From assembly GCA_902555055.1 (NCBI GenBank), contig CACDQN010000001.1:39820-103819 (forward strand): a stretch of DNA of 64,000 bases. The letters run 5' to 3'. This DNA is from an uncultured Candidatus Actinomarina sp. GTDB taxonomy: Bacteria > Actinomycetota > Acidimicrobiia > Actinomarinales > Actinomarinaceae. The position numbers and the translations under genes were made by a program. The first letter of the stretch is position 1. Each line of letters begins with the position of its first letter. The notes beneath the pieces were generated by a model. The model was given only the letters and a program-made list of their open reading frames with translations. It had not been told where the DNA came from and made no database searches. Of this stretch, positions 4,260 through 61,996 are shown in pieces.

Positions 4260-6122
4260 TTAACTTAAATAATTTTTATGCCATTTAATAATGTGATCGA
4301 ATCTTTGTTTTCTGTGAACGGGTTTACCCGATCTTGAAAGCTCGTGACTCTCTCCAGGAAACCTTAACATAGCCGACTCCACACCCCGCCTTTTTAAATT
4401 TGAAAAAAGCTGTTCAGCTTGTTCTACTGGACATCTATAGTCTTCCTCAGAGTGGATTATAAGAGTTGGAGTTTTTATATTTGAAGCAAACGTGATAGGA
4501 CTTTTCTCCCTGTAAAGATTAATATTTTTAGACATATTATCTAAAAGATACATTTCAGGAAAGCCAATCCCAATATCTGAAGTACCAACCATTGTTTCCC
4601 AATTTAGCAATGCGCGTTCAACAATTGCTGACTTAAACATATTTGGTTTGTGGCTAATAATCCAAGACGTCATGAACCCACCATATGAACCACCCATGAT
4701 TCCATAATTTTTATTAGTAACACCCATAATTTTTACCATTTTTTTGAAAGAAGTTAAAACATCATGCATATCTGCAACACCCCATTGGTCCCCACAAACA
4801 TCTCTAAGAAAGTCATGGCCTCTACCACTAGAACCTCTCGGGTTACAAGCTATTACATTAAAACCTGCCGATGCATAAGTTTGAAATTCATCAAAAAAGG
4901 TAAATCCGTACTGTGATGCAGGACCACCATGGATATTTAAAAGGGTTGGTCGATCTTTACTTACAAAGATTCCCCATGTATCTATTTCTGATTCACCAGT
5001 ATTAATTCTTTTGTAGACACATTTGTGTGTTTTTACTTTATTGACAAAGTAATCGTTTGCTTTTGAATTTTTTATAATTCGACCATTTTCTATTTCATAA
5101 ATTTCATCAGGTTTTGAAAAAGAATTAGCAATTATATAAATCCTATCATCGTTGAACGCAAAATCTTTAATGGTGATATTAAGGTCAACTAAATCAATAT
5201 TATTTGTACCGTCGCGAAGTAAGGTTTTTCCTGAGTCTTCATATAAAAAATAAAGTATAGAATTATTAATTTTAGCTTTAGAAATATTCCTATCAAAGAG
5301 TTTAAATTTAAATGAAGCATGTCCAGGCTTAGAAAACTTGAGAATAGTTGGATTTGTTGGCCAGTCAAAACGATTTCTTAGGCCTACACCGTGTAAAGTA
5401 TCTTCATAGTAAAAGAGGTTGCTTATTGAACCTTTTTCAAAAATATTATCTATAGATCTATTTTTTACAACCCCAACCCTCTCTTCAAGCATTGTGCCTG
5501 CTAAGTTATATTGGCTATATGACAGTGTTATTGTATTTTTATGTTCAACTAATGAGTCAATTGAAATTATGTTCTCTTTATCACCATTAATAAGTATTGT
5601 TGATTTCTTAGATTGAAGATTTACTTTATAAACATGACTTCTTTTGTTGTAAATGATTCCCACACTATCAAAATGAAATGGAAGATTTTCATAGTACATC
5701 GGTTCCTCTTCCTTTTTTTCAATACTTTTAAAATCTTTAGACCATTCATTAGTTATTACGTAGATAAATTTTTCATTTTTACTCAAAATATAATTAGAGA
5801 TTTTTCCTTCAGTCTGAAAGACCGTTTCTGTTGTTCTTCCACTTTGAACTTGAATAGTGGAAGATACTTTTACTTCTTTATTCTTCGGTATTCTGGGTGA
5901 TTTTATATAAAAAATAGAGTTAGTTAATTTTGCAAATTTTGGGTTAGTGAAATTATAACTTCCTGATTTATATTTTTTCCAAGAACCTTTGTCCCCTTTC
6001 CATAGTTCAGATATATAAGTATTAGTCTCTAGATCCATGCGAGTACTTTGTACTATCAGGCTTGAAGCCTTTCCGTCTAGATTGGATAGGGAATTAAATT
6101 CTGTTAAGTTATTTGGCTTCAT
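4260..6122 (-). CDS. S9 family serine peptidase (prolyl oligopeptidase / acylaminoacyl-peptidase type)
   Basis: 620 aa. N-terminal beta-propeller-like region plus a C-terminal alpha/beta hydrolase domain with nucleophile elbow GGSYGGFM and a later D/H region (EEDYRCP, GESHEL). Confidence 0.9.
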   Translation of the reverse strand: MKPNNLTEFNSLSNLDGKASSLIVQSTRMDLETNTYISELWKGDKGSWKKYKSGSYNFTNPKFAKLTNSIFYIKSPRIPKNKEVKVSSTIQVQSGRTTETVFQTEGKISNYILSKNEKFIYVITNEWSKDFKSIEKKEEEPMYYENLPFHFDSVGIIYNKRSHVYKVNLQSKKSTILINGDKENIISIDSLVEHKNTITLSYSQYNLAGTMLEERVGVVKNRSIDNIFEKGSISNLFYYEDTLHGVGLRNRFDWPTNPTILKFSKPGHASFKFKLFDRNISKAKINNSILYFLYEDSGKTLLRDGTNNIDLVDLNITIKDFAFNDDRIYIIANSFSKPDEIYEIENGRIIKNSKANDYFVNKVKTHKCVYKRINTGESEIDTWGIFVSKDRPTLLNIHGGPASQYGFTFFDEFQTYASAGFNVIACNPRGSSGRGHDFLRDVCGDQWGVADMHDVLTSFKKMVKIMGVTNKNYGIMGGSYGGFMTSWIISHKPNMFKSAIVERALLNWETMVGTSDIGIGFPEMYLLDNMSKNINLYREKSPITFASNIKTPTLIIHSEEDYRCPVEQAEQLFSNLKRRGVESAMLRFPGESHELSRSGKPVHRKQRFDHIIKWHKNYLS

Positions 6123-6135
6123 GCTAATTCTTATT

Positions 6136-7500
6136 CTATTTAATTAATTTATCCGCAACAAGTGTAATTATCATTGAAGAAATTAAGGCAATAGCAAAAG
6201 TGTTTAGGTCTGCTAAACCATAAAGATCTGTGGGTATAAATACCCCTCCAGGATTTGCTTGAAGATCAATATATTGAAATCTATATATAAAAGCAGACAT
6301 AAGAGATCCAACGAAGGGAACTATAAGTAAGAAATCTTTGCTGGTTTTTTTTATTCTATAGAAAGCTGGAAACACAAGGCTAGTTGCAAACAAGTCAGCT
6401 ACTAAAAATACATTAAAAATACTAGTTACTTCAATTGATATTACTAATGCAATACATACAATTAATAATGTTATTAATTTAGCTTCTTCAGATTTTTTCT
6501 TAAGAATATCTAATGAAATAGTTGATGCAATTGCATTTTCTAGAGTATCAATACTTGATGTTACTAAAAGGGTTGCTAAAGAGACTAGCAATATAATTGT
6601 AAAATTATTCAAATTTAACTGATCAATGAAGCTTAATGCAGGAGATTCTAAACCCTTTCCCGCTCCAACTGCACCACCAATTCCCAAAAGAAGAATAGTT
6701 AAGAATGCACCCATTCCAGAAAAGATGCTTGCTTGTTTAATAGCTTTTGAGTTTTCTGCTGAAAAAGTTCTCTGCCAGTAACCCATAGAAAAAACCTCAG
6801 CTGCAGTTACAGCAATTATTACAGCTAATGCAGACTTAAGGCTAAAAGTTTCAAATGAGTTTAATCCTCCGTCGTTTGCAAAAGTTACTAACTCAGAAAG
6901 ACTGTTTTGGCTTAGCCATATGGTGAAAACAATAGCCAGTAACAAAATTATTCCATAACTTTGAAGCTTATCTGTAAAATAAGATGCTTTAAATCCATGT
7001 CTAAATAGGTAAGCCAATGTAGTCATAGCAATTAGCAAACTTATTAAAACCCCACGAACAGTTGATATTGATTCAAAAACGAAACCAATTGATGCAAACT
7101 CGGCTATTAAAAAAGCTCCCATATAAATTACCGCTACCATGGAAACTATTTTTTGAGCGATACTTCCATATTTTGTTTCGACAAATTGTGCAAGCGTAGC
7201 CCCTTTTGGTAACAAATCAGCAATCCTAGGGCCAAAAATATATATCAAAATAAAAGGAGTAGCTGCTGAAATAGCATAACCATAAATGTCGTACCCTAAC
7301 CCATACCAAGCAACCTCAGCCGGAGAGGTCAGAATCCAAAGTCCCATACCACTTGCGTAAAAGCTTAAACTTAAGCCAAGTACACCTTCTGACTTATTTA
7401 AAACAAAATACTCATCTTCATTTGACTTCAAACTTCTTGTTTGAAAGTAGATCCAAGTCAAAATTAATATAACTATTAAATAAACTACATTTGCGTTCAT
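6136..7500 (-). CDS. Sodium:solute symporter family transporter, TPP-riboswitch controlled (thiV-like; candidate thiamine-precursor/HMP importer)
   Basis: 454 aa polytopic membrane protein with an SSS-type N-terminus (EDEYFVLNKS..GLSLSFYASGMG). It lies immediately downstream of a TPP riboswitch on the same strand. Confidence 0.85.
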   Translation of the reverse strand: MNANVVYLIVILILTWIYFQTRSLKSNEDEYFVLNKSEGVLGLSLSFYASGMGLWILTSPAEVAWYGLGYDIYGYAISAATPFILIYIFGPRIADLLPKGATLAQFVETKYGSIAQKIVSMVAVIYMGAFLIAEFASIGFVFESISTVRGVLISLLIAMTTLAYLFRHGFKASYFTDKLQSYGIILLLAIVFTIWLSQNSLSELVTFANDGGLNSFETFSLKSALAVIIAVTAAEVFSMGYWQRTFSAENSKAIKQASIFSGMGAFLTILLLGIGGAVGAGKGLESPALSFIDQLNLNNFTIILLVSLATLLVTSSIDTLENAIASTISLDILKKKSEEAKLITLLIVCIALVISIEVTSIFNVFLVADLFATSLVFPAFYRIKKTSKDFLLIVPFVGSLMSAFIYRFQYIDLQANPGGVFIPTDLYGLADLNTFAIALISSMIITLVADKLIK

Positions 7501-10409: not shown

Positions 10410-10433
10410 TATATTTTATAATAAAATTTTATT

Positions 10434-10452
10434 ATTGCAAACTATTTGCAAT
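10434..10452. promoter_or_regulatory. 8-3-8 perfect palindrome ATTGCAAA-CTA-TTTGCAAT, candidate operator upstream of cbiM
   Basis: Read directly from the sequence. It lies in the 48-nt spacer, 25-43 nt upstream of the cbiM start codon. Confidence 0.3.
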
Positions 10453-10457
10453 AAGAT

Positions 10458-14081: not shown

Positions 14082-14912
14082 TTAAGAATTTATTTCAACA
14101 AGATTATTTTTCTTAATAGTAATTAATCCATCCTTTTCTAATGTAGTGGTTGCTTTTAAAAGCTTTTCTCTATCAACTGCAAGCGCCTTCTCTATCTTTT
14201 TTAAAGATAATTTGTTATTACTTAATAATAATTTTAATAAATCTCCACGCAGCTCTCTATTTGAACCAGAAAATGCTTCTTGAGGCCTCTTTATTTTTAC
14301 TATATATTTTTTACAATTATTTTCGAGAACACAAGAGCTACATAACGGATTTTTACTTTTACAAACCATACTGCCAAAATCCATAATTGCTTGATTTAAA
14401 TCTCTAGAGGAAACTCTGTCTAGAAGTGTTTTCTTATTGTTATGTATAAAAGTCTTCACTTCGTCTACTCCAAAATACCTTGAAAACACCCTGTCAACAT
14501 TTACATCTCTAGTTATAACTTTTTTATGATAAGCAAAAGATAATATTGCGTTATTTGTATACGGGCCCACTCCTGGGAGCACTTCAAAGTTTGGATACAA
14601 TTCATCAAATCCAGTTTCACATAGTATTTTAGAAGATTCATAGAGTCTCTTGGCACGATTATTGTACCCAAGACCAGACCATAGAATTAATACTTTTTTG
14701 AGTGAAGAAGAAGCCATGGTCTCTGGATTTGGAAACTCCTTGATGAATAATTTGAAGTAGGTATCTGCTCTATCTAATTGTGTCTGTTGAGATATTGTTT
14801 CCAAAAGAAGAATTTTCCAAGGATCGTTGGTTTCTCTCCAGGAGTAGTCACGTTTGTTATTCTTATACCAATTTAAAAGATCTCTTTTAAATTTCTTTGT
14901 TTTAATCTCCAA
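14082..14912 (-). CDS. HhH-GPD base-excision glycosylase, MutY-like (A/G-specific adenine glycosylase) without a NUDIX-type C-terminal domain
   Basis: LLETISQQTQ, HhH-GPD loop LPGVGPYTNNAI, catalytic-Asp region RDVNVDRV, 4Fe-4S loop C-x6-C-x2-C-x5-C (CKSKNPLCSSCVLENNC). The last ~60 aa look like a winged helix rather than a MutT-like domain. Confidence 0.8.
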   Translation of the reverse strand: MEIKTKKFKRDLLNWYKNNKRDYSWRETNDPWKILLLETISQQTQLDRADTYFKLFIKEFPNPETMASSSLKKVLILWSGLGYNNRAKRLYESSKILCETGFDELYPNFEVLPGVGPYTNNAILSFAYHKKVITRDVNVDRVFSRYFGVDEVKTFIHNNKKTLLDRVSSRDLNQAIMDFGSMVCKSKNPLCSSCVLENNCKKYIVKIKRPQEAFSGSNRELRGDLLKLLLSNNKLSLKKIEKALAVDREKLLKATTTLEKDGLITIKKNNLVEINS

Positions 14913-18440: not shown

Positions 18441-19691
18441 ATGCTAGATCCTGCAATTTTAAAAAATGATATTGAAAGCCTAGAGCTTAATTTAGAACGA
18501 AGAAACCTAGATATTGATTTGAAAAAGCTAACTGCTTTAGATGAACTAAGAAGAGAATTAAGATTTGAAGCGGAAAAGTTGAGATCTGAACAAAAGACTT
18601 TAGGTAAGCAAATCGCATCCGCAGATGAGAAAACTAAAAATGAATTACTTGACCAAGCATCACAGATGAGCGAAAAAGTTAAAGACTTATTTGAAAAGGT
18701 AGATCTTGCTGATAAAAATTTTATGGATATTTGGATAAAAATTCCAAATCTCATTTCAACCACTTCTCCTGATGGTACGTCTGATAAAGAGAATTCTGAA
18801 ATTAAGAAATTCGGAGAGATACGCAATATTAATAATCCCAAAGACCATCTTGAAATAGCAGAAAGTCTTGGATTGATTGATGTACAAAAAGCTTCTGAAG
18901 TTTCCGGTTCAAGATTTTCTTATTTGTTTGGAGACTTAGTAAAAATTGAGTTTAATTTAGTCTTGTGGGCTATGCAGCAATTATCTGACAAAGGTTTTAA
19001 ACCGACAATCCCTCCAGTTTTAGTCAGAGAAAATGCGCTTTATGGGACAGGATTTTTTCCTGATGATGCTGAACAGGTTTATGAAATTCCTAATGATGAT
19101 CTTTATTTAGTGGGTACATCAGAAGTTCCGCTTGCTGCATTACACTCTAATGAAATCTTAGATACTGCCACTCTACCAATAAGGTATGCAGGTTTTTCAA
19201 CTTGTTTCAGACGTGAAGCTGGAACATACGGAAAAGATACAACAGGAATTTTTAGAGTACATCAATTCGACAAAGTAGAAATGTTTTCATTCTGTAATCC
19301 TGAAAAATCTGAAGAAGAACATAAGTTTATCCTTTCAGTAGAAGAAGAGCTTTTGCAAGCTCTAGAAATCCCCTATCGAGTTGTAGACGTTTGTGCTGGC
19401 GATTTAGGTTCTTCAGCTTCAAAAAAATACGATATAGAAGCTTGGATTCCAAGTCAACAAGCATATAGAGAAGTTACTTCATGCTCTAACACAACAGACT
19501 TTCAAGCAAGAAGGCTTAATATCAGAGGAAAAGCAGATGGAGAAACTAATGTTTTACACACCCTAAACGGTACTGCTATTGCTGTCGGAAGAATATTAAT
19601 TGCTTTAATTGAAAACAACCAAACTGAAGACGGTAAAGTAGAATTTTCTGACAGTGTTGCTGAAATTATTGGTGTTAAAAACCTAAGCTAA
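18441..19691 (+). CDS. serS: Seryl-tRNA synthetase
   Basis: 416 aa. N-terminal coiled-coil arm and class II motifs (FRREAG, GTAIAVGRILIALIEN). Confidence 0.95.
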   Translation: MLDPAILKNDIESLELNLERRNLDIDLKKLTALDELRRELRFEAEKLRSEQKTLGKQIASADEKTKNELLDQASQMSEKVKDLFEKVDLADKNFMDIWIKIPNLISTTSPDGTSDKENSEIKKFGEIRNINNPKDHLEIAESLGLIDVQKASEVSGSRFSYLFGDLVKIEFNLVLWAMQQLSDKGFKPTIPPVLVRENALYGTGFFPDDAEQVYEIPNDDLYLVGTSEVPLAALHSNEILDTATLPIRYAGFSTCFRREAGTYGKDTTGIFRVHQFDKVEMFSFCNPEKSEEEHKFILSVEEELLQALEIPYRVVDVCAGDLGSSASKKYDIEAWIPSQQAYREVTSCSNTTDFQARRLNIRGKADGETNVLHTLNGTAIAVGRILIALIENNQTEDGKVEFSDSVAEIIGVKNLS

Positions 19692-20760: not shown

Positions 20761-20849
20761 GGAGGGATCGCATAGTCTGGCCTAGTGCGCACGCTTGGAA
20801 AGCGTGTAAGGGTTTATCCCCTTCGAGGGTTCGAATCCCTCTCCCTCCG
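20761..20849 (+). tRNA. tRNA-Ser (anticodon GGA)
   Basis: Class II tRNA with a long variable arm. Anticodon arm CACGC-TTGGAAA-GCGTG. T-arm GAGGG-TTCGAAT-CCCTC. Acceptor GGAGGGA/TCCCTCC, discriminator G. Confidence 0.95.
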
Positions 20850-20866
20850 CAAAAAACAGACCATCT

Positions 20867-20952
20867 GGAGGGATGGCCGAGCGGACGAAGGCGATAGTCT
20901 TGAAAACTATTGTATGTATTCCATACCGTGGGTTCGAATCCCACTCCCTCCG
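20867..20952 (+). tRNA. tRNA-Ser (anticodon UGA)
   Basis: Anticodon arm ATAGT-CTTGAAA-ACTAT, long variable arm, GTGGG-TTCGAAT-CCCAC T-arm. Confidence 0.95.
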
Positions 20953-20959
20953 CTGACTT

Positions 20960-21049
20960 GGAGAGGTGACTGAGTGGCCTAAAGTGCTCGCCTGCTAAGC
21001 GAGTGGGGAAGAAATTCCCTCGAGGGTTCGAATCCCTCTCTCTCCGCCA
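20960..21049 (+). tRNA. tRNA-Ser (anticodon GCU), CCA encoded
   Basis: Anticodon arm CTCGC-CTGCTAA-GCGAG, long variable arm, acceptor GGAGAGG/TCTCTCC, then G and CCA (21047-21049). Confidence 0.95.
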
Positions 21050-21050
21050 T

Positions 21051-21124
21051 GCGCCTGTAGCTTAACTGGATAGAGCATCTGATTACGGATCAGAAGGTTG
21101 GGGGTTCGACTCCCTCCAGGCGTG
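21051..21124 (+). tRNA. tRNA-Arg (anticodon ACG)
   Basis: Anticodon arm TCTGA-TTACGGA-TCAGA. Starts 1 nt after the CCA of the preceding tRNA. Confidence 0.95.
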
Positions 21125-21130
21125 CTAGAT

Positions 21131-34788: not shown

Positions 34789-36885
34789 TTATAGTTTTCT
34801 TGCTGAATTAAGCACTACTGAAATACTTGATAGAGCCATTGCCAAAGCAGCAAGGTTAGGAGTGATTAAACCAACTACGGCCAGTGGGATCATCAAAGTA
34901 TTGTAAATAAAAGCTAAAAATAAATTTTGATTAATCCTAAATTTTGATTTTTTTGATAAATTAAAAACTTCATTTAATGTTTCAAGACCTCCTTTGTAAA
35001 TCAGAATATCACCTGAAACTTGTGCTATTTGACTACTAGAGGATGTTGTCACACCAACGTCAGCTTGTTTTATTGCAGGAGAATCATTGATGCCATCTCC
35101 GATAAATATAACGCCACCATTGTTTTGTCTATCTTTTATAAATTGTAGTTTCTCTTCTGGATCTTTATTTGAGTAGTATTCAGCTATTCCATGTTTTTCT
35201 GCAAATCTCCTAACATTATCTTCTTTATCTCCAGATAAAATAGTGATGTTTTTTTCTTTCCTTAATTTTTCTAAAAAGTTTAAATCGATGGCTGATTCCT
35301 CTTCTAGGTTTAAAATAAATTCTTTTTCATCAATCATAATTTTTAAAGAGGGCAAGTTGCTATTTTTATTTTTTGTAATAACAATCATTTTCTCTGCAAC
35401 AAATCCTTCTATGCCAACACCTGAAGTTTCCTTAACATTCGAAGCTGGTAAAAGCTCTAAATCCCTAAGCTCAGCTTCATAAACAATACTTTTTGCTATT
35501 GGATGCTGAGAATAGTTCTCAAGACTACTTACTAACTGAAGTAAATTCTCTTCTGTAATATCTTGGTATGGATTTTCAATTTTAGTAATTTTAAAAATAC
35601 CTGAAGATAAAGTACCTGTTTTGTCAAAGACCATATTATTTATATCGCCAAATCTCTGAAGTATGTCAAAGTTCTTAAACAAAAAACCTCTCGTTTTGCT
35701 TACAGTGGCAGTTTTAAATAACACTATCGGTGTAGCTAGCCCCAGGGCACAAGGACATGCAATAACTAATATAGCTATGGTATTTCTTAAGGCATCTAAA
35801 ACTTCAGCATCTTGAAATATAAAATTATAAATAAAAGTAGAAAAGCTAATAAACAGCACAAGAGGAACAAAAAGTTGGGTTATCCTATCAAGAGACTTTT
35901 GAATTTTTGGCTTTGTTGCTTGTGCGTTACGAATTAAATCTTCAATTAGATTGTATGTAGATTGCTGATAGGACTCCACAACCTCAATCTTTAGTAGTCC
36001 TTCAAGATTAACACTACCTCCTACAACTTCTTCTCCAACATCTTTTCTGATAGGAAGAGCTTCTCCAGTAAGAAGACTTTCATCTACTGTAGATTTTCCT
36101 TCAACAATAATTCCATCAACAGGGATAATTTCTCCAGCTTTAACATCAAATAAATCTTCTTTTTGAATTTCCTTAATTGGAATATCAATTTTCTTATTAT
36201 TCCTTAATACGATAAGAGTTTTTGGCATTCTGCTTTTGATAGACTCAGATGTTTTTACAGATTCTTCAATAACCCTATCTTCAACAGATTTACCTATTAA
36301 GAGAAATGAAATTATAAAAGCACCTGTATCTAAAAACATTTTATTATCATTTATTGAAATTGAAGTTGAGGTAATTAGCTCAACTGGGATAATTGATATT
36401 ATTAGTGAACTTAAACTACCTAAGGAAATTAAAGTATCCATATTAAAATCAAGATGTCGTAATTTCTTAATTGCCGAAATATGAAAATTTCTGCCTAAAA
36501 ATAAAATAATAAAAAAACCAAGAGTGTATGCGATCAAATCGTAACCTGATTGAAAAAAGTATTTTAAGGAAGCAGCTAATAAAATTGATAATATTGGCAC
36601 ATATAAATTAAATTTATTTTTTTTATGTTCGTTCTCTTCTTGAGCCTCTCTTGCTTTATAGCCGATTTTGTTAACTGATTCGATAACTTCTTCTAACTGA
36701 AAATTACTATTTTCTATAATGTCTATTGTTGCTAATTTCAAAGGGAAGCTGACTGAGGAGTCTAGAACATCACTATTTTTAGATAAGATACGTTCGATTC
36801 TTGCTGCGCAGGCAGCACAAGTCATACCATCAATGTCTAAATTGATTGATTTAGTTTGATTCGACAACTGTATAGCCTTGTTCAT
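34789..36885 (-). CDS. copA: Copper-translocating P1B-type ATPase
   Basis: N-terminal HMA domain ([12 protein letters not shown]), TGE, CPC ([11 protein letters not shown]), [17 protein letters not shown]. Confidence 0.92.
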
Positions 36886-37060
36886 CTAACAAACTGGTTA
36901 CAACCCCCATGTCTATTGCATCAGTTGAATTAACTTCAACTAACTTCTTGTCAATATTGACAGATACATCTTGAACCGATTCGATAGTATTTATAGCTGA
37001 CTCAATTGTTTCTTTACAATGTCCACAGCTAATTTCAGGTACAGTAAATTTTGTTTCCAT
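36851..37060 (-). CDS. copZ: Copper chaperone CopZ (HMA domain)
   Basis: 69 aa. [20 protein letters not shown] carries the MxCxHC-type metal site. Overlaps the copA start by 35 nt. Confidence 0.88.
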
Positions 37061-37093
37061 ATCTTTATAATAATATTGAGTAATTTATAAAAT

Positions 37094-37114
37094 AAGCCCC
37101 TAAATTAGGGGCTT
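37094..37114 (-). terminator. GC-rich palindrome AAGCCCCTAA-A-TTAGGGGCTT: intrinsic terminator of the upstream small gene and/or operator of copZA
   Basis: On the minus strand the hairpin is followed by AUUUUAU and lies about 50 nt after the stop of the 37165-37359 gene. It also sits 34-54 nt upstream of the copZ ATG. Confidence 0.6.
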
Positions 37115-37164
37115 ATAAGAAACCTCTTGGGGGAGATTTCGATAGGGGGGGGGATGGTTAAAAC

Positions 37165-37359
37165 CTAAGCAGTTTCTTGTAGAATTCTGCCTCTTACTCT
37201 TGGGTATTTCACAGGAGCATGGTTAAAACAATGATCTCTTTTGTTATAAATACTTAATTGAGTGCTACAAGATTCATCTTTACACACTCTGCCCTGGTCA
37301 AAACTTTTAGAAGGTCTTATTCCACCTTTAATTTGACTCGCTTTTAGTCCGTCTGTCAT
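37165..37359 (-). CDS. Small Cys/His zinc-ribbon protein (64 aa), family not recognised; paralogue of 61738-61938
   Basis: MTDGLKASQIKGGIRPSKSFDQGRVCKDESCSTQLSIYNKRDHCFNHAPVKYPRVRGRILQETA. Ligand pattern C-x4-C-x12-C-x2-H. AAGGA RBS, own terminator, and more than half of the positions identical to the second copy. Confidence 0.75.
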   Translation of the reverse strand: MTDGLKASQIKGGIRPSKSFDQGRVCKDESCSTQLSIYNKRDHCFNHAPVKYPRVRGRILQETA

Positions 37360-39358: not shown

Positions 39359-39395
39359 ACAACTCCTTTAACTTTTTATATGATACTATTTAGAT

Positions 39396-39632
39396 ATGGA
39401 TATCAAACTTGAATTTTGTGTAGTTTGAAACTACACACCTCGTGCAGTTAGTACGATTGAAGATATTTTAGAAAAATATGGAAATACAGTTAAATCAATT
39501 AATTTAATTCCAAGCGGTGGAGGAGTGTTCGAATTCCAATTAAATGAAAAATTACTTTTTTCAAAAAAAGAATTAGGACGACACTCTGAAGATGGAGAAA
39601 TTCTTAAGTTAATTGAAGAAGAACTTGGTTGA
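39396..39632 (+). CDS. SelW/Rdx-family redox protein with in-frame TGA (candidate selenocysteine) at 39426-39428
   Basis: Not in the track because the TGA splits it. Translation: MDIKLEFCVV[TGA]NYTPRAVSTIEDILEKYGNTVKSINLIPSGGGVFEFQLNEKLLFSKKELGRHSEDGEILKLIEEELG. The C-V-V-U motif and the GGGVFEF...KLLFSKK block parallel SelW (VVYCGAUGY...TGFFEV..GKLIHSKK, from memory). TACTAT lies 6 nt upstream of the ATG. The stop overlaps the next start (TTGA). Confidence 0.6.
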
Positions 39633-40363
39633 GCTTTCCATTTGAGTTAACTTTATTTGAAGTAATTTTTATTGCTTCACTATTGTTCATCAGCTCCGCA
39701 GTGCAAGGCGTTCTTGGATTTGGCTTTGCAGTAATTGCCTCTCCTATAATTGTTCAAATTGAACCAAACTTGGTTCCACAATTATTATCTTTACTAGGTC
39801 TTCCACTAGCAATCAGAGTATTTTACCGAGAGAAGGAAGAAGTTGATCTTTCTAAAGTAAAACCACTCATTATAGGTAGGTTAGTTGGCGGACCAATCGG
39901 GCTTTTTTTACTTTTAAATCTATCAGAAAAGTACTTATCGATCGCCGTGGGATTTATAGTTTTTATTGCTGGTGTAGGTTCTTTTTTTGGTTGGGTTATA
40001 AATAGAAATATCTTAAATTCCTTTCTCGCAGGAACTTTTTCAGGTGTATTTGGAATGGTTGCAGCAATTGGTGGTCCTCCGGTTGCACTTCTGTATAGGA
40101 ACACTAGATCTGAAGAGTTTCGTCCCTCTCTTAATAGTGTTTTTAGTATAGGTATTGTTATAACACTCTCACTTTTATTACTTAGTGGCAACTTGCTATG
40201 GGATCATTTTTTATTATTTACTATATTTATTCCATTTGTATTAATTGGAATTAGGGTTTCGAGTTCAATGTTTTCTAAAGTTTCTGATCAATTCATTTCT
40301 CAAGCAGTAACTTATTTCTCAGTACTGTCTGGAATATATGTAATCTTGAGAAACATAAATTAG
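39629..40363 (+). CDS. TauE/SafE (DUF81) family anion exporter-like membrane protein
   Basis: 244 aa, about 7-8 Gly-rich TM helices with internal duplication typical of TauE/SafE. TTG start overlapping the SelW-like stop. Confidence 0.75.
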   Translation: MSFPFELTLFEVIFIASLLFISSAVQGVLGFGFAVIASPIIVQIEPNLVPQLLSLLGLPLAIRVFYREKEEVDLSKVKPLIIGRLVGGPIGLFLLLNLSEKYLSIAVGFIVFIAGVGSFFGWVINRNILNSFLAGTFSGVFGMVAAIGGPPVALLYRNTRSEEFRPSLNSVFSIGIVITLSLLLLSGNLLWDHFLLFTIFIPFVLIGIRVSSSMFSKVSDQFISQAVTYFSVLSGIYVILRNIN

Positions 40364-47661: not shown

Positions 47662-47682
47662 TAAAAACTTAATTGTTTTTAG

Positions 47683-47704
47683 AAAGGGGCCGAAAGGCCC
47701 CTTT
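47683..47704 (+). terminator. Intrinsic terminator/attenuator after the binding-protein gene
   Basis: AAAGGGGCC-GAAA-GGCCCCTTT hairpin with a GNRA loop, followed by a T-rich stretch. Confidence 0.7.
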
Positions 47705-47773
47705 CATATTTCTTCTTAAAGACGAATGGAAATGAAAAAGCTAGGGTGGTATTATCAATTTACTTATTGAATT

Positions 47774-61970: not shown

Positions 61971-61996
61971 AAATCTAAGTAAATATACTTAGATTT
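61971..61996. promoter_or_regulatory. HAIR-like inverted repeat AAATCTAAGT-AAATAT-ACTTAGATTT, candidate HspR operator
   Basis: Perfect 10-bp arms (11 if the first spacer pair is counted). On the minus strand it is followed immediately by TATATAAT, then AGGAG and the ATG of the 61738-61938 gene. It resembles but does not equal CTTGAGT-N7-ACTCAAG. Confidence 0.45.

Follow-up and report, generated by a model that had tools for sequence, protein, structure and literature searches.

A predicted SelW-like selenoprotein gene of Candidatus Actinomarina with a bacterial-type SECIS and a conserved overlap with a TauE/SafE permease gene

We analysed a 64,000-nucleotide stretch of DNA from an uncultured Candidatus Actinomarina sp. 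(contig CACDQN010000001.1; hereafter the window), and in particular the gap that separates a divergently transcribed M3 peptidase gene from a TauE/SafE permease gene. From the letters and their open reading frames (ORFs) alone, an earlier reading of this DNA (the original prediction) had placed in the gap a hidden gene of the SelW/Rdx family with UGA at the selenocysteine (Sec) position of its CxxU motif. The frame exists as it was described: it opens at ATG 39396, passes through an in-frame TGA at 39426-39428 and closes at TGA 39630-39632, giving 78 codons, and family profiles span the internal TGA at the CxxU position. The DNA has about 32% GC (31-37% in the window), and in a scan with one genome per species the nearest relatives are single-cell and metagenome-assembled genomes of Candidatus Actinomarina and other Actinomarinales, the best of them 95% identical. 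Long marine metagenome contigs carry the same gene order around the locus, which comprises the following features.

39396 to 39632, forward strand: predicted gene of 78 codons for a SelW-like selenoprotein of the Rdx family, whose motif C8-V-V-U11 has Sec at codon 11 (translation, profiles, PDB matches, ratio of non-synonymous to synonymous polymorphism (pN/pS), structure model).
39426 to 39428, forward strand: in-frame UGA, predicted to be read as selenocysteine (all 80 genome loci have TGA here, and all 93 full-length database proteins have 'W').
39440 to 39456, forward strand: predicted bacterial selenocysteine insertion sequence (SECIS), a 6-bp stem UCGUGC/GUACGA closed by the apical loop AGUUA, which holds G22 and U23 (folding, covariation, codon constraint).
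39417 to 39437, forward strand: hairpin of 9 bp without mismatch, its triloop being the UGA, TGTGTAGTT-TGA-AACTACACA, restricted to the lineage (folding, alignment).
39381 to 39389, forward strand: extended -10-like motif TGATACTAT (read in the sequence; kept in nearly all Actinomarinales orthologues).
39629 to 39632, forward strand: TTGA overlap, in which the TTG start of TauE lies over the TGA stop of Rdx; putative translational-coupling junction (invariant in 25 distinct Actinomarinales junctions).
39629 to 40363, forward strand: TauE/SafE (TSUP) permease gene, 244 aa, the second cistron (PF01925).

The predicted product reads MDIKLEFCVV, then the residue specified by the internal TGA, then NYTPRAVSTIEDILEKYGNTVKSINLIPSGGGVFEFQLNEKLLFSKKELGRHSEDGEILKLIEEELG up to the terminal TGA, and includes the segment GGGVFEF, the segment LLFSKKELGRHSED and a C-terminal ELG. 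Beyond the internal TGA the first in-frame ATG, GTG or TTG is GTG 39525, which lies 33 codons further on and already past the GGG turn; the earlier argument that a shorter conventional ORF cannot explain the gene is therefore upheld. TGA serves as an ordinary stop in this DNA, closing 9 of the 46 window ORFs of at least 200 aa, and tryptophan in the window ORFs is always encoded by TGG (210 codons), so that the internal TGA is not explicable by genetic code 4.

With Cys put in place of the UGA, the product matches the Pfam family PF10262 (Rdx) with E = 1.6e-16 and a score of 60.7 bits (cut-off 22.6); the match covers positions 2-73 of the 74 in the profile and hence runs across the UGA. It also matches NCBIfam TIGR02174 (CXXU_selWTH; 51.2 bits, cut-off 34.2), and its score of 82.3 against NF041051, a Campylobacter-type equivalog, falls just under the cut-off of 88. 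The likeness to Rdx/SelW noted in the original prediction is thus confirmed by PF10262 and TIGR02174. Sequence matches in the PDB are to the bacterial SelW-related structures 2fa8, 3dex, 2ojl, 2p0g, 2obk and 2oka, whose CxxC aligns to C-V-V-[UGA]; the UGA itself falls on the second Cys of this motif, which reads CTQC in 2fa8, 3dex and 2ojl.

A structure was predicted with AlphaFold2 for the orthologue P0002, which is 94% identical and has Trp where Sec is expected. Of the five models only one was confident, with a predicted local distance difference test score (pLDDT) of 86.9. It comprises strands at residues 2-8, 34-40, 45-49 and 52-56 and helices at 14-31 and 68-77, arranged as the thioredoxin-like beta-alpha-beta-beta-beta-alpha Rdx fold. 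C8-V-V-[UGA]11 follows directly on strand beta-1 of the model and precedes helix alpha-1, so that the redox motif C-V-V-U lies between these two elements. When the same model was compared with known structures using Foldseek, the top 21 matches were all bacterial SelW-related structures (TM-score 0.78-0.83, E down to 2e-7), and mammalian selenoprotein W (2npb; mouse SelW 0.64) and MIEN1 (2ljk) were matched with TM-scores of 0.64-0.66. The 78-residue product is a putative thiol/selenol oxidoreductase.

The internal TGA is conserved wherever the gene was found. We gathered 80 genome loci with a query that starts after the UGA, from Actinomarinales, Marinimicrobia/Fidelibacterota, Chloroflexota, a Bacillaceae metagenome-assembled genome and the cultured Wukongibacter baidiensis; all of them have TGA at the CxxU position and none has a Cys form. 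Likewise, the 93 full-length database homologues (95% down to 52% identity) all show 'W' at this position, again with no Cys form among them. To the earlier question of whether homologues would align Cys or TGA at the motif, the answer is thus TGA throughout. Most of the 93 homologues continue through a second W into a short, non-conserved tail, and this combination of W and tail is the signature of table-4 gene calling on short low-GC contigs. Public entries mostly run to 84 aa, Trp taking the place of Sec and six residues being falsely added at the end (equivalent to window positions 39396-39650; P0001-P0094); others are fragments of 42-65 aa that start after the UGA, one of which is assigned to 'Flavobacteriaceae bacterium TMED206'.

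A comparison of 32 distinct Actinomarinales genes gave pN/pS values of 0.09 before the UGA (codons 2-10) and 0.26 after it (codons 12-78); on both sides the gene is under purifying selection as coding sequence. All Actinomarinales orthologues are 78 codons long, and many of them have in-frame stops just 5' of the ATG. We conclude that 39396-39632 is a genuine SelW-like/Rdx gene which annotation has missed, a find that is largely to be expected; that Sec is inserted at codon 11 is what its sequence predicts. One low-coverage contig of 655 bp (L094, positions 95-352) differs in its first ten codons (MIDVTLEYCMS-U), which are preceded by an AAGGAG Shine-Dalgarno (SD) sequence, and from the UGA onward is identical to one Actinomarina clade; it represents either a recombinant 5' end or an assembly chimera.

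We next consider the RNA around the UGA, numbered with the U of UGA as 1. A hairpin UCGUGC-AGUUA-GUACGA, absent from the two hairpins of the original prediction, was predicted in every fold of the region. It occupies nucleotides 15-31 (UGA+15 to +31), so that an 11-nt spacer is followed by a stem-loop of 17 nt. The upper stem-loop of the E. coli SECIS likewise follows an 11-nt spacer and spans nucleotides 15-31, with G23 and U24 in its apical loop (PMC8659212). Among 22 distinct Actinomarinales sequences the six pairs of the stem are 100% intact. Pair 15-31 is U-A in 16 of these, C-G in five and G-C in one; changes on its 3' side alter the amino acid (Ile, Val, Leu), and its 5' nucleotide falls at the third position of a Pro codon. 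At pair 19-27, G-U occurs in 15 sequences and G-C in seven. The loop reads A-G-U-U-A/G, with G22, U23 and U24 invariant. The covariation score of this element was reached by none of 500 shuffles, and control windows slid along the alignment were paired at only 4-49%.

Codon choice in this segment is constrained as well. Codons 16-18 and 20 (CGU, GCA, GUU and ACG) show no synonymous variation in any of the 32 sequences, in which most other four-fold sites of the Rdx gene vary freely, and the invariant CGU and ACG are rare within their codon families (7% of Arg and 6% of Thr codons, respectively). In the other phyla the corresponding stem is GC-rich (nucleotides 21-24 with 30-33); one of its positions shows six types of pair and a second shows three. 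Its loop follows the pattern N-G-U-N-Y, all 38 sequences having G26 and 34 of them U27. Because of the 11-nt spacer, the 17-nt length, the GU in the loop, the covariation and the invariant rare codons, the recoding signal is predicted to be of the canonical bacterial type and not an unusual one. The earlier expectation of a non-canonical signal gives way to this stem-loop of canonical layout at 39440-39456.

Upstream of the gene, a TACTAT hexamer ends 6 nt before the ATG and no SD sequence follows it. Across the order the motif TGATA[C/G]TAT keeps this spacing, also in orthologues that have otherwise diverged upstream of the gene. SD sequences are in use in this organism, as is shown by the AAGGAG of the divergently oriented M3 peptidase gene at a distance of 37 nt. 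A leaderless mRNA for the Rdx gene, as envisaged in the original prediction, is plausible given the order-wide conservation of the -10-like motif and the lack of an SD sequence, its transcription start being predicted from the motif.

At the other end of the gene, the TTGA overlap between the Rdx stop and the TTG start of TauE, also described earlier, is kept in every Actinomarinales locus examined. The last Rdx residue varies (G, S, D or V), always with an NNT codon, across the 25 distinct junctions; the arrangement is compatible with translational coupling of the two genes. The downstream product matches PF01925 over residues 18-237 (E = 1.5e-21, 77.6 bits, cut-off 32.6), and tblastn finds TauE directly downstream in 47 of 47 Actinomarinales loci, at 91% down to 48% identity. 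Gene calls had suggested that one Actinomarinales clade (L007-L011) has no adjacent TauE, which the tblastn result rules out; in these loci the real TauE gene is covered by a spurious 190-aa call on the minus strand. Outside Actinomarinales, however, 44 loci of other phyla show no TauE-like ORF within 3 kb of the Rdx gene, and the neighbours are heterogeneous (FecR-like proteins, a CCG/4Fe-4S protein, tRNA synthetases, an AraC regulator), with no recurrent partner. Thus the synteny of Rdx-TauE pairs, named as a check in the original prediction, holds throughout Actinomarinales but not outside them, and the 'functional pair' which it read from the adjacency is a weak proposal: the pairing is an order-level operon feature and not a family-wide functional pair. 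In the literature nothing relevant was found that links TSUP/TauE proteins to selenium.

The M3 oligopeptidase gene, which lies between a 64-aa gene and the Rdx gene, is absent in one Actinomarinales clade (L039, L041-L046, L007-L011); the -10 motif, Rdx, the TTGA junction and TauE are all retained there. The 64-aa protein (37165-37359, reverse strand) is Cys/His-rich (CKDESC...CFNH), has no Pfam match and adjoins the locus in all related contigs, and in the clade that lacks the M3 gene it becomes the divergent neighbour of the Rdx gene. Just upstream, at 34789-37060 on the reverse strand, are a copper-type P1B ATPase (698 aa, HMA and E1-E2 ATPase domains) and a 69-aa HMA protein (CopZ-like). 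The copper ATPase is split into four fragments in locus L002, through frameshifts or assembly errors.

Decoding of the UGA as Sec would require the corresponding machinery, which has been reported for the genus. According to a preprint, each of 84 complete Actinomarina genomes has selC, selA, selD and a divergent selB but no selenouridine synthase, and about five selenoproteins are predicted per genome (bioRxiv 10.64898/2026.04.03.716425). The commonest predicted family, found by deep-Sep, has 78 aa, is termed 'uncharacterized' and is assigned neither in UniRef90 nor in KEGG; no SECIS was found in these genomes with Rfam models (bioRxiv 10.64898/2026.04.03.716425). This family shares with the gene described here its genus, its length, a single Sec and its rank as the most common predicted selenoprotein per genome, and on the strength of length and abundance it is almost certainly the Rdx gene of 39396-39632. 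The same preprint reports a selenoprotein group in 49 genomes that 'matches K07090' (TSUP/TauE), its predictions having been assigned to gene calls by overlap on the same strand (bioRxiv 10.64898/2026.04.03.716425). As a guess, the 4-nt overlap with TauE could have led to Rdx predictions being mislabelled as K07090.

Within the window, two ORFs of 620 and 454 aa at 4260-7500 are of the size of selB and selA, and were rejected as a Dpp5-like peptidase and a sodium/solute symporter. Ten further ORFs considered as Sec machinery also proved unrelated (PASTA kinase, DnaK, SerRS, MurJ and others). A seryl-tRNA synthetase gene lies about 1 kb from three tRNA-Ser genes and one tRNA-Arg gene (18441-19691 and 20761-21125), with no tRNA-Sec among them. 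A scan for pairs of ORFs joined by a single TGA gave one other sizeable pair, at 534-1113, which was discarded as a second selenoprotein candidate since it is of low complexity and resembles an antisense frame.

Taken jointly, these observations are best explained by an Rdx selenoprotein gene in which UGA codon 11 encodes Sec under the direction of a conventional bacterial SECIS at 39440-39456, within a probable leaderless Rdx-TauE bicistron; we give this reading a probability of about 0.92. The mRNA would probably start at or beside the AUG, driven from the extended -10 motif. While the UGA occupies the ribosomal A site, the SECIS would bind the complex of SelB, GTP and Sec-tRNA(Sec), and codon 11 would be decoded as Sec to give C-V-V-U. 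TauE would then probably be made by termination and reinitiation, by those ribosomes that had passed the UGA.

Several observations weigh against this explanation. On its own the SECIS stem has no unusual thermodynamic stability (-6.6 kcal/mol, z = -1.3), and it is uninterrupted, so that a bulged U17 is missing: G17 pairs with C29 and U18 with A28. A lower helix between nucleotides 4-14 and 32-41 appears in no fold of the region, in which nucleotides 4-12 pair instead with the 9 nt upstream of the UGA. A search of Rfam at gathering thresholds returned tRNAs and no SECIS family. The covariation comes from related sequences, in which one stem pair alone changes on both sides. Finally, selA, selB, selD and tRNA-Sec were not found within the window by ARAGORN, Rfam and ORF checks, and the reported Sec machinery of the genus rests on an unreviewed preprint (bioRxiv 10.64898/2026.04.03.716425).

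A bolder form of this explanation, which we consider unlikely, is that the bicistron is gated by selenium, with TauE, taken as a sulfur/selenium oxyanion permease, made only after Sec insertion and with the UGA-enclosing hairpin as an accessory. Ribosomes would load only at the 5' AUG, and TauE has a TTG start, no evident SD sequence and the conserved TTGA. If ribosomes do load only there and TauE is coupled through TTGA, its expression would track the availability of Sec-tRNA and SelB. In that case the hairpin around the UGA might stand in for the lower SECIS helix, or delay the first ribosome until SelB has been loaded.

The original prediction, in which any recoding signal would be unusual, leads to a rival reading with a larger part for this hairpin: that the structure at 39417-39437 is itself the signal or an essential part of it, an unusual and non-canonical SECIS. 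The hairpin is real in the sense that its nine perfect pairs enclose the UGA as a triloop just as claimed, and it is stable: it folds at -8.7 kcal/mol (z = -3.5), and none of 200 shuffles folds as well. It is predicted to be stable in 15 of 16 distinct Actinomarinales contexts, and it recurs in L092 and L080, a Logan contig (52% protein identity, with an identical 24-nt segment) and a Caldilineaceae genome, both of which share CV[VS]U with NY after it. At its synonymous sites codon choice differs from that of the genome (GUA in 30 of 31 sequences, AAC in 29 of 32 and UAC in 32 of 32, compared with 33%, 24% and 28%), a further point in favour of a role.

The pattern of variation nevertheless argues against a recoding function. 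Within Actinomarinales 91% of the aligned cells are paired, and the 17 departures are all unpaired, with no compensatory change; at least one mismatch occurs in 10 of 22 distinct sequences, and the hairpin is missing in one species with CITU and in a variant contig with CMSU (L039 and L094). It is absent as well from most other phyla, in about 36 sequences which keep both the UGA and the SECIS. Compensation across the region, to which the original prediction had looked for a decision, is seen at 39440-39456 (pair 15-31) but not at 39417-39437. From the established geometry of the ribosome, the 5' arm of the hairpin would be inside the ribosome with the UGA in the A site, and because of this the hairpin could not exist during decoding. 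With a covarying stem-loop of canonical type just downstream as well, a role as the recoding signal is highly improbable. We conclude that the hairpin is not that signal; it may serve as an accessory in this lineage, or result incidentally from the sequence that codes for CVVU-NYT.

The second, mutually exclusive structure proposed earlier, at 39429-39449, is present with eight pairs and one A-C mismatch, but as a signal it gains no support, since it never varies informatively and competes with the SECIS. In the window as a whole, about 11 independent perfect hairpins of at least 9 bp were seen against about 4 expected by chance, most of them intergenic. Perfect inverted repeats of 9-11 bp in short intergenic gaps (10432-10454, 14870-14893, 37092-37116, 47682-47705 and 61971-61996), which are probably terminators, account for most of this excess.

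The remaining alternatives fare worse. Near-cognate read-through by a Cys or Trp tRNA, in which no selenium is involved and the downstream hairpin just slows termination, draws on the fact that Sec incorporation is predicted and the Sec machinery of the genus preprint-based. It is nonetheless very improbable, since the hairpin has the position, the size and the loop GU of a SelB-binding SECIS, the genus is reported to carry selA, selB, selC and selD, and Rdx/SelW is an established selenoprotein family. A pseudogene, that is a CxxC Rdx gene inactivated by a nonsense mutation, might be suspected where standard gene callers give no full ORF and some public annotations (P0095, P0099, P0100) start downstream of the TGA, but it is effectively refuted by the TGA kept across phyla with no Cys form among the 93 close homologues, by purifying selection on both sides and a conserved SECIS, and by the constancy of the 78-codon length and the TauE junction in orthologues that show no frameshifts or scattered stops. 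Reading of TGA as tryptophan under genetic code 4, as in the public 84-aa CVVW calls with their 6-residue tail, has in its favour the 93 database entries so translated and the low GC of the genome, and has practically no chance of being right given that TGA ends long ORFs and Trp is TGG here, that the family has Cys or Sec and not Trp at this position, and that the read-through tail is not conserved and the conserved TTG with which TauE starts falls on the second TGA. The conservation of the UGA and the selection data together exclude a pseudogene, a short downstream ORF and a code-4 reading.

Much of this was already to be expected: the family is known, the SECIS is of canonical type and the genus is reported to have the Sec machinery. 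What is new is modest, namely the family assignment, a SECIS for an Actinomarina selenoprotein and a conserved, probably leaderless Rdx-TauE bicistron. A family is now assigned to a gene which in public annotation is overlooked, cut short or wrongly translated with Trp and a spurious tail, and the assignment probably names the commonest 'uncharacterized' selenoprotein of the Actinomarina preprint. It also supplies a concrete SECIS for a lineage in which the Rfam models of the preprint found none, which can be used to seek the other selenoproteins of the genus. Just two features might themselves prove new, both as yet unproven: the conserved coupling to TauE and the hairpin that encloses the UGA.

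Among known systems, the E. coli fdhF SECIS shares with the Actinomarina element the 11-nt spacer, the 17-nt upper stem-loop and the apical GU (PMC8659212). Its GU lies at nucleotides 23-24, however, one nucleotide away from the 22-23 of the Actinomarina loop, and it has a bulged U17 and a lower helix (4-14 with 32-41), both of which the Actinomarina element lacks. Eukaryotic SelW genes differ more deeply, with a SECIS in the 3' untranslated region that works with SBP2. At the protein level, mammalian SelW (2npb) and MIEN1 (2ljk) belong to the same Rdx fold family and have the CxxU/CxxC motif, with distant sequence similarity. The Cys-containing Rdx structures 2fa8 (Atu0228), 3dex (SAV_2001), 2ojl, 2p0g, 2obk and 2oka have the same fold as the modelled orthologue (TM-score about 0.8), but they carry Cys in place of Sec, are about 25 residues longer and are only 16-26% identical in sequence. 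The closest counterparts are the bacterial SelW-like selenoproteins (PF10262, formerly PF05169; TIGR02174, NF041051) described from the Sargasso Sea and Global Ocean Sampling metagenomes. With these the Actinomarina gene shares a full-length domain, CxxU with Sec as the second redox residue, small size and an origin in marine surface water, together with a SECIS directly 3' of the UGA that has a G in a small apical loop. The Actinomarinales form is set apart from them by its NF041051 score below the cut-off, its lineage-specific CVVU, the hairpin enclosing the UGA, the predicted leaderless layout and the 4-nt overlap with TauE.

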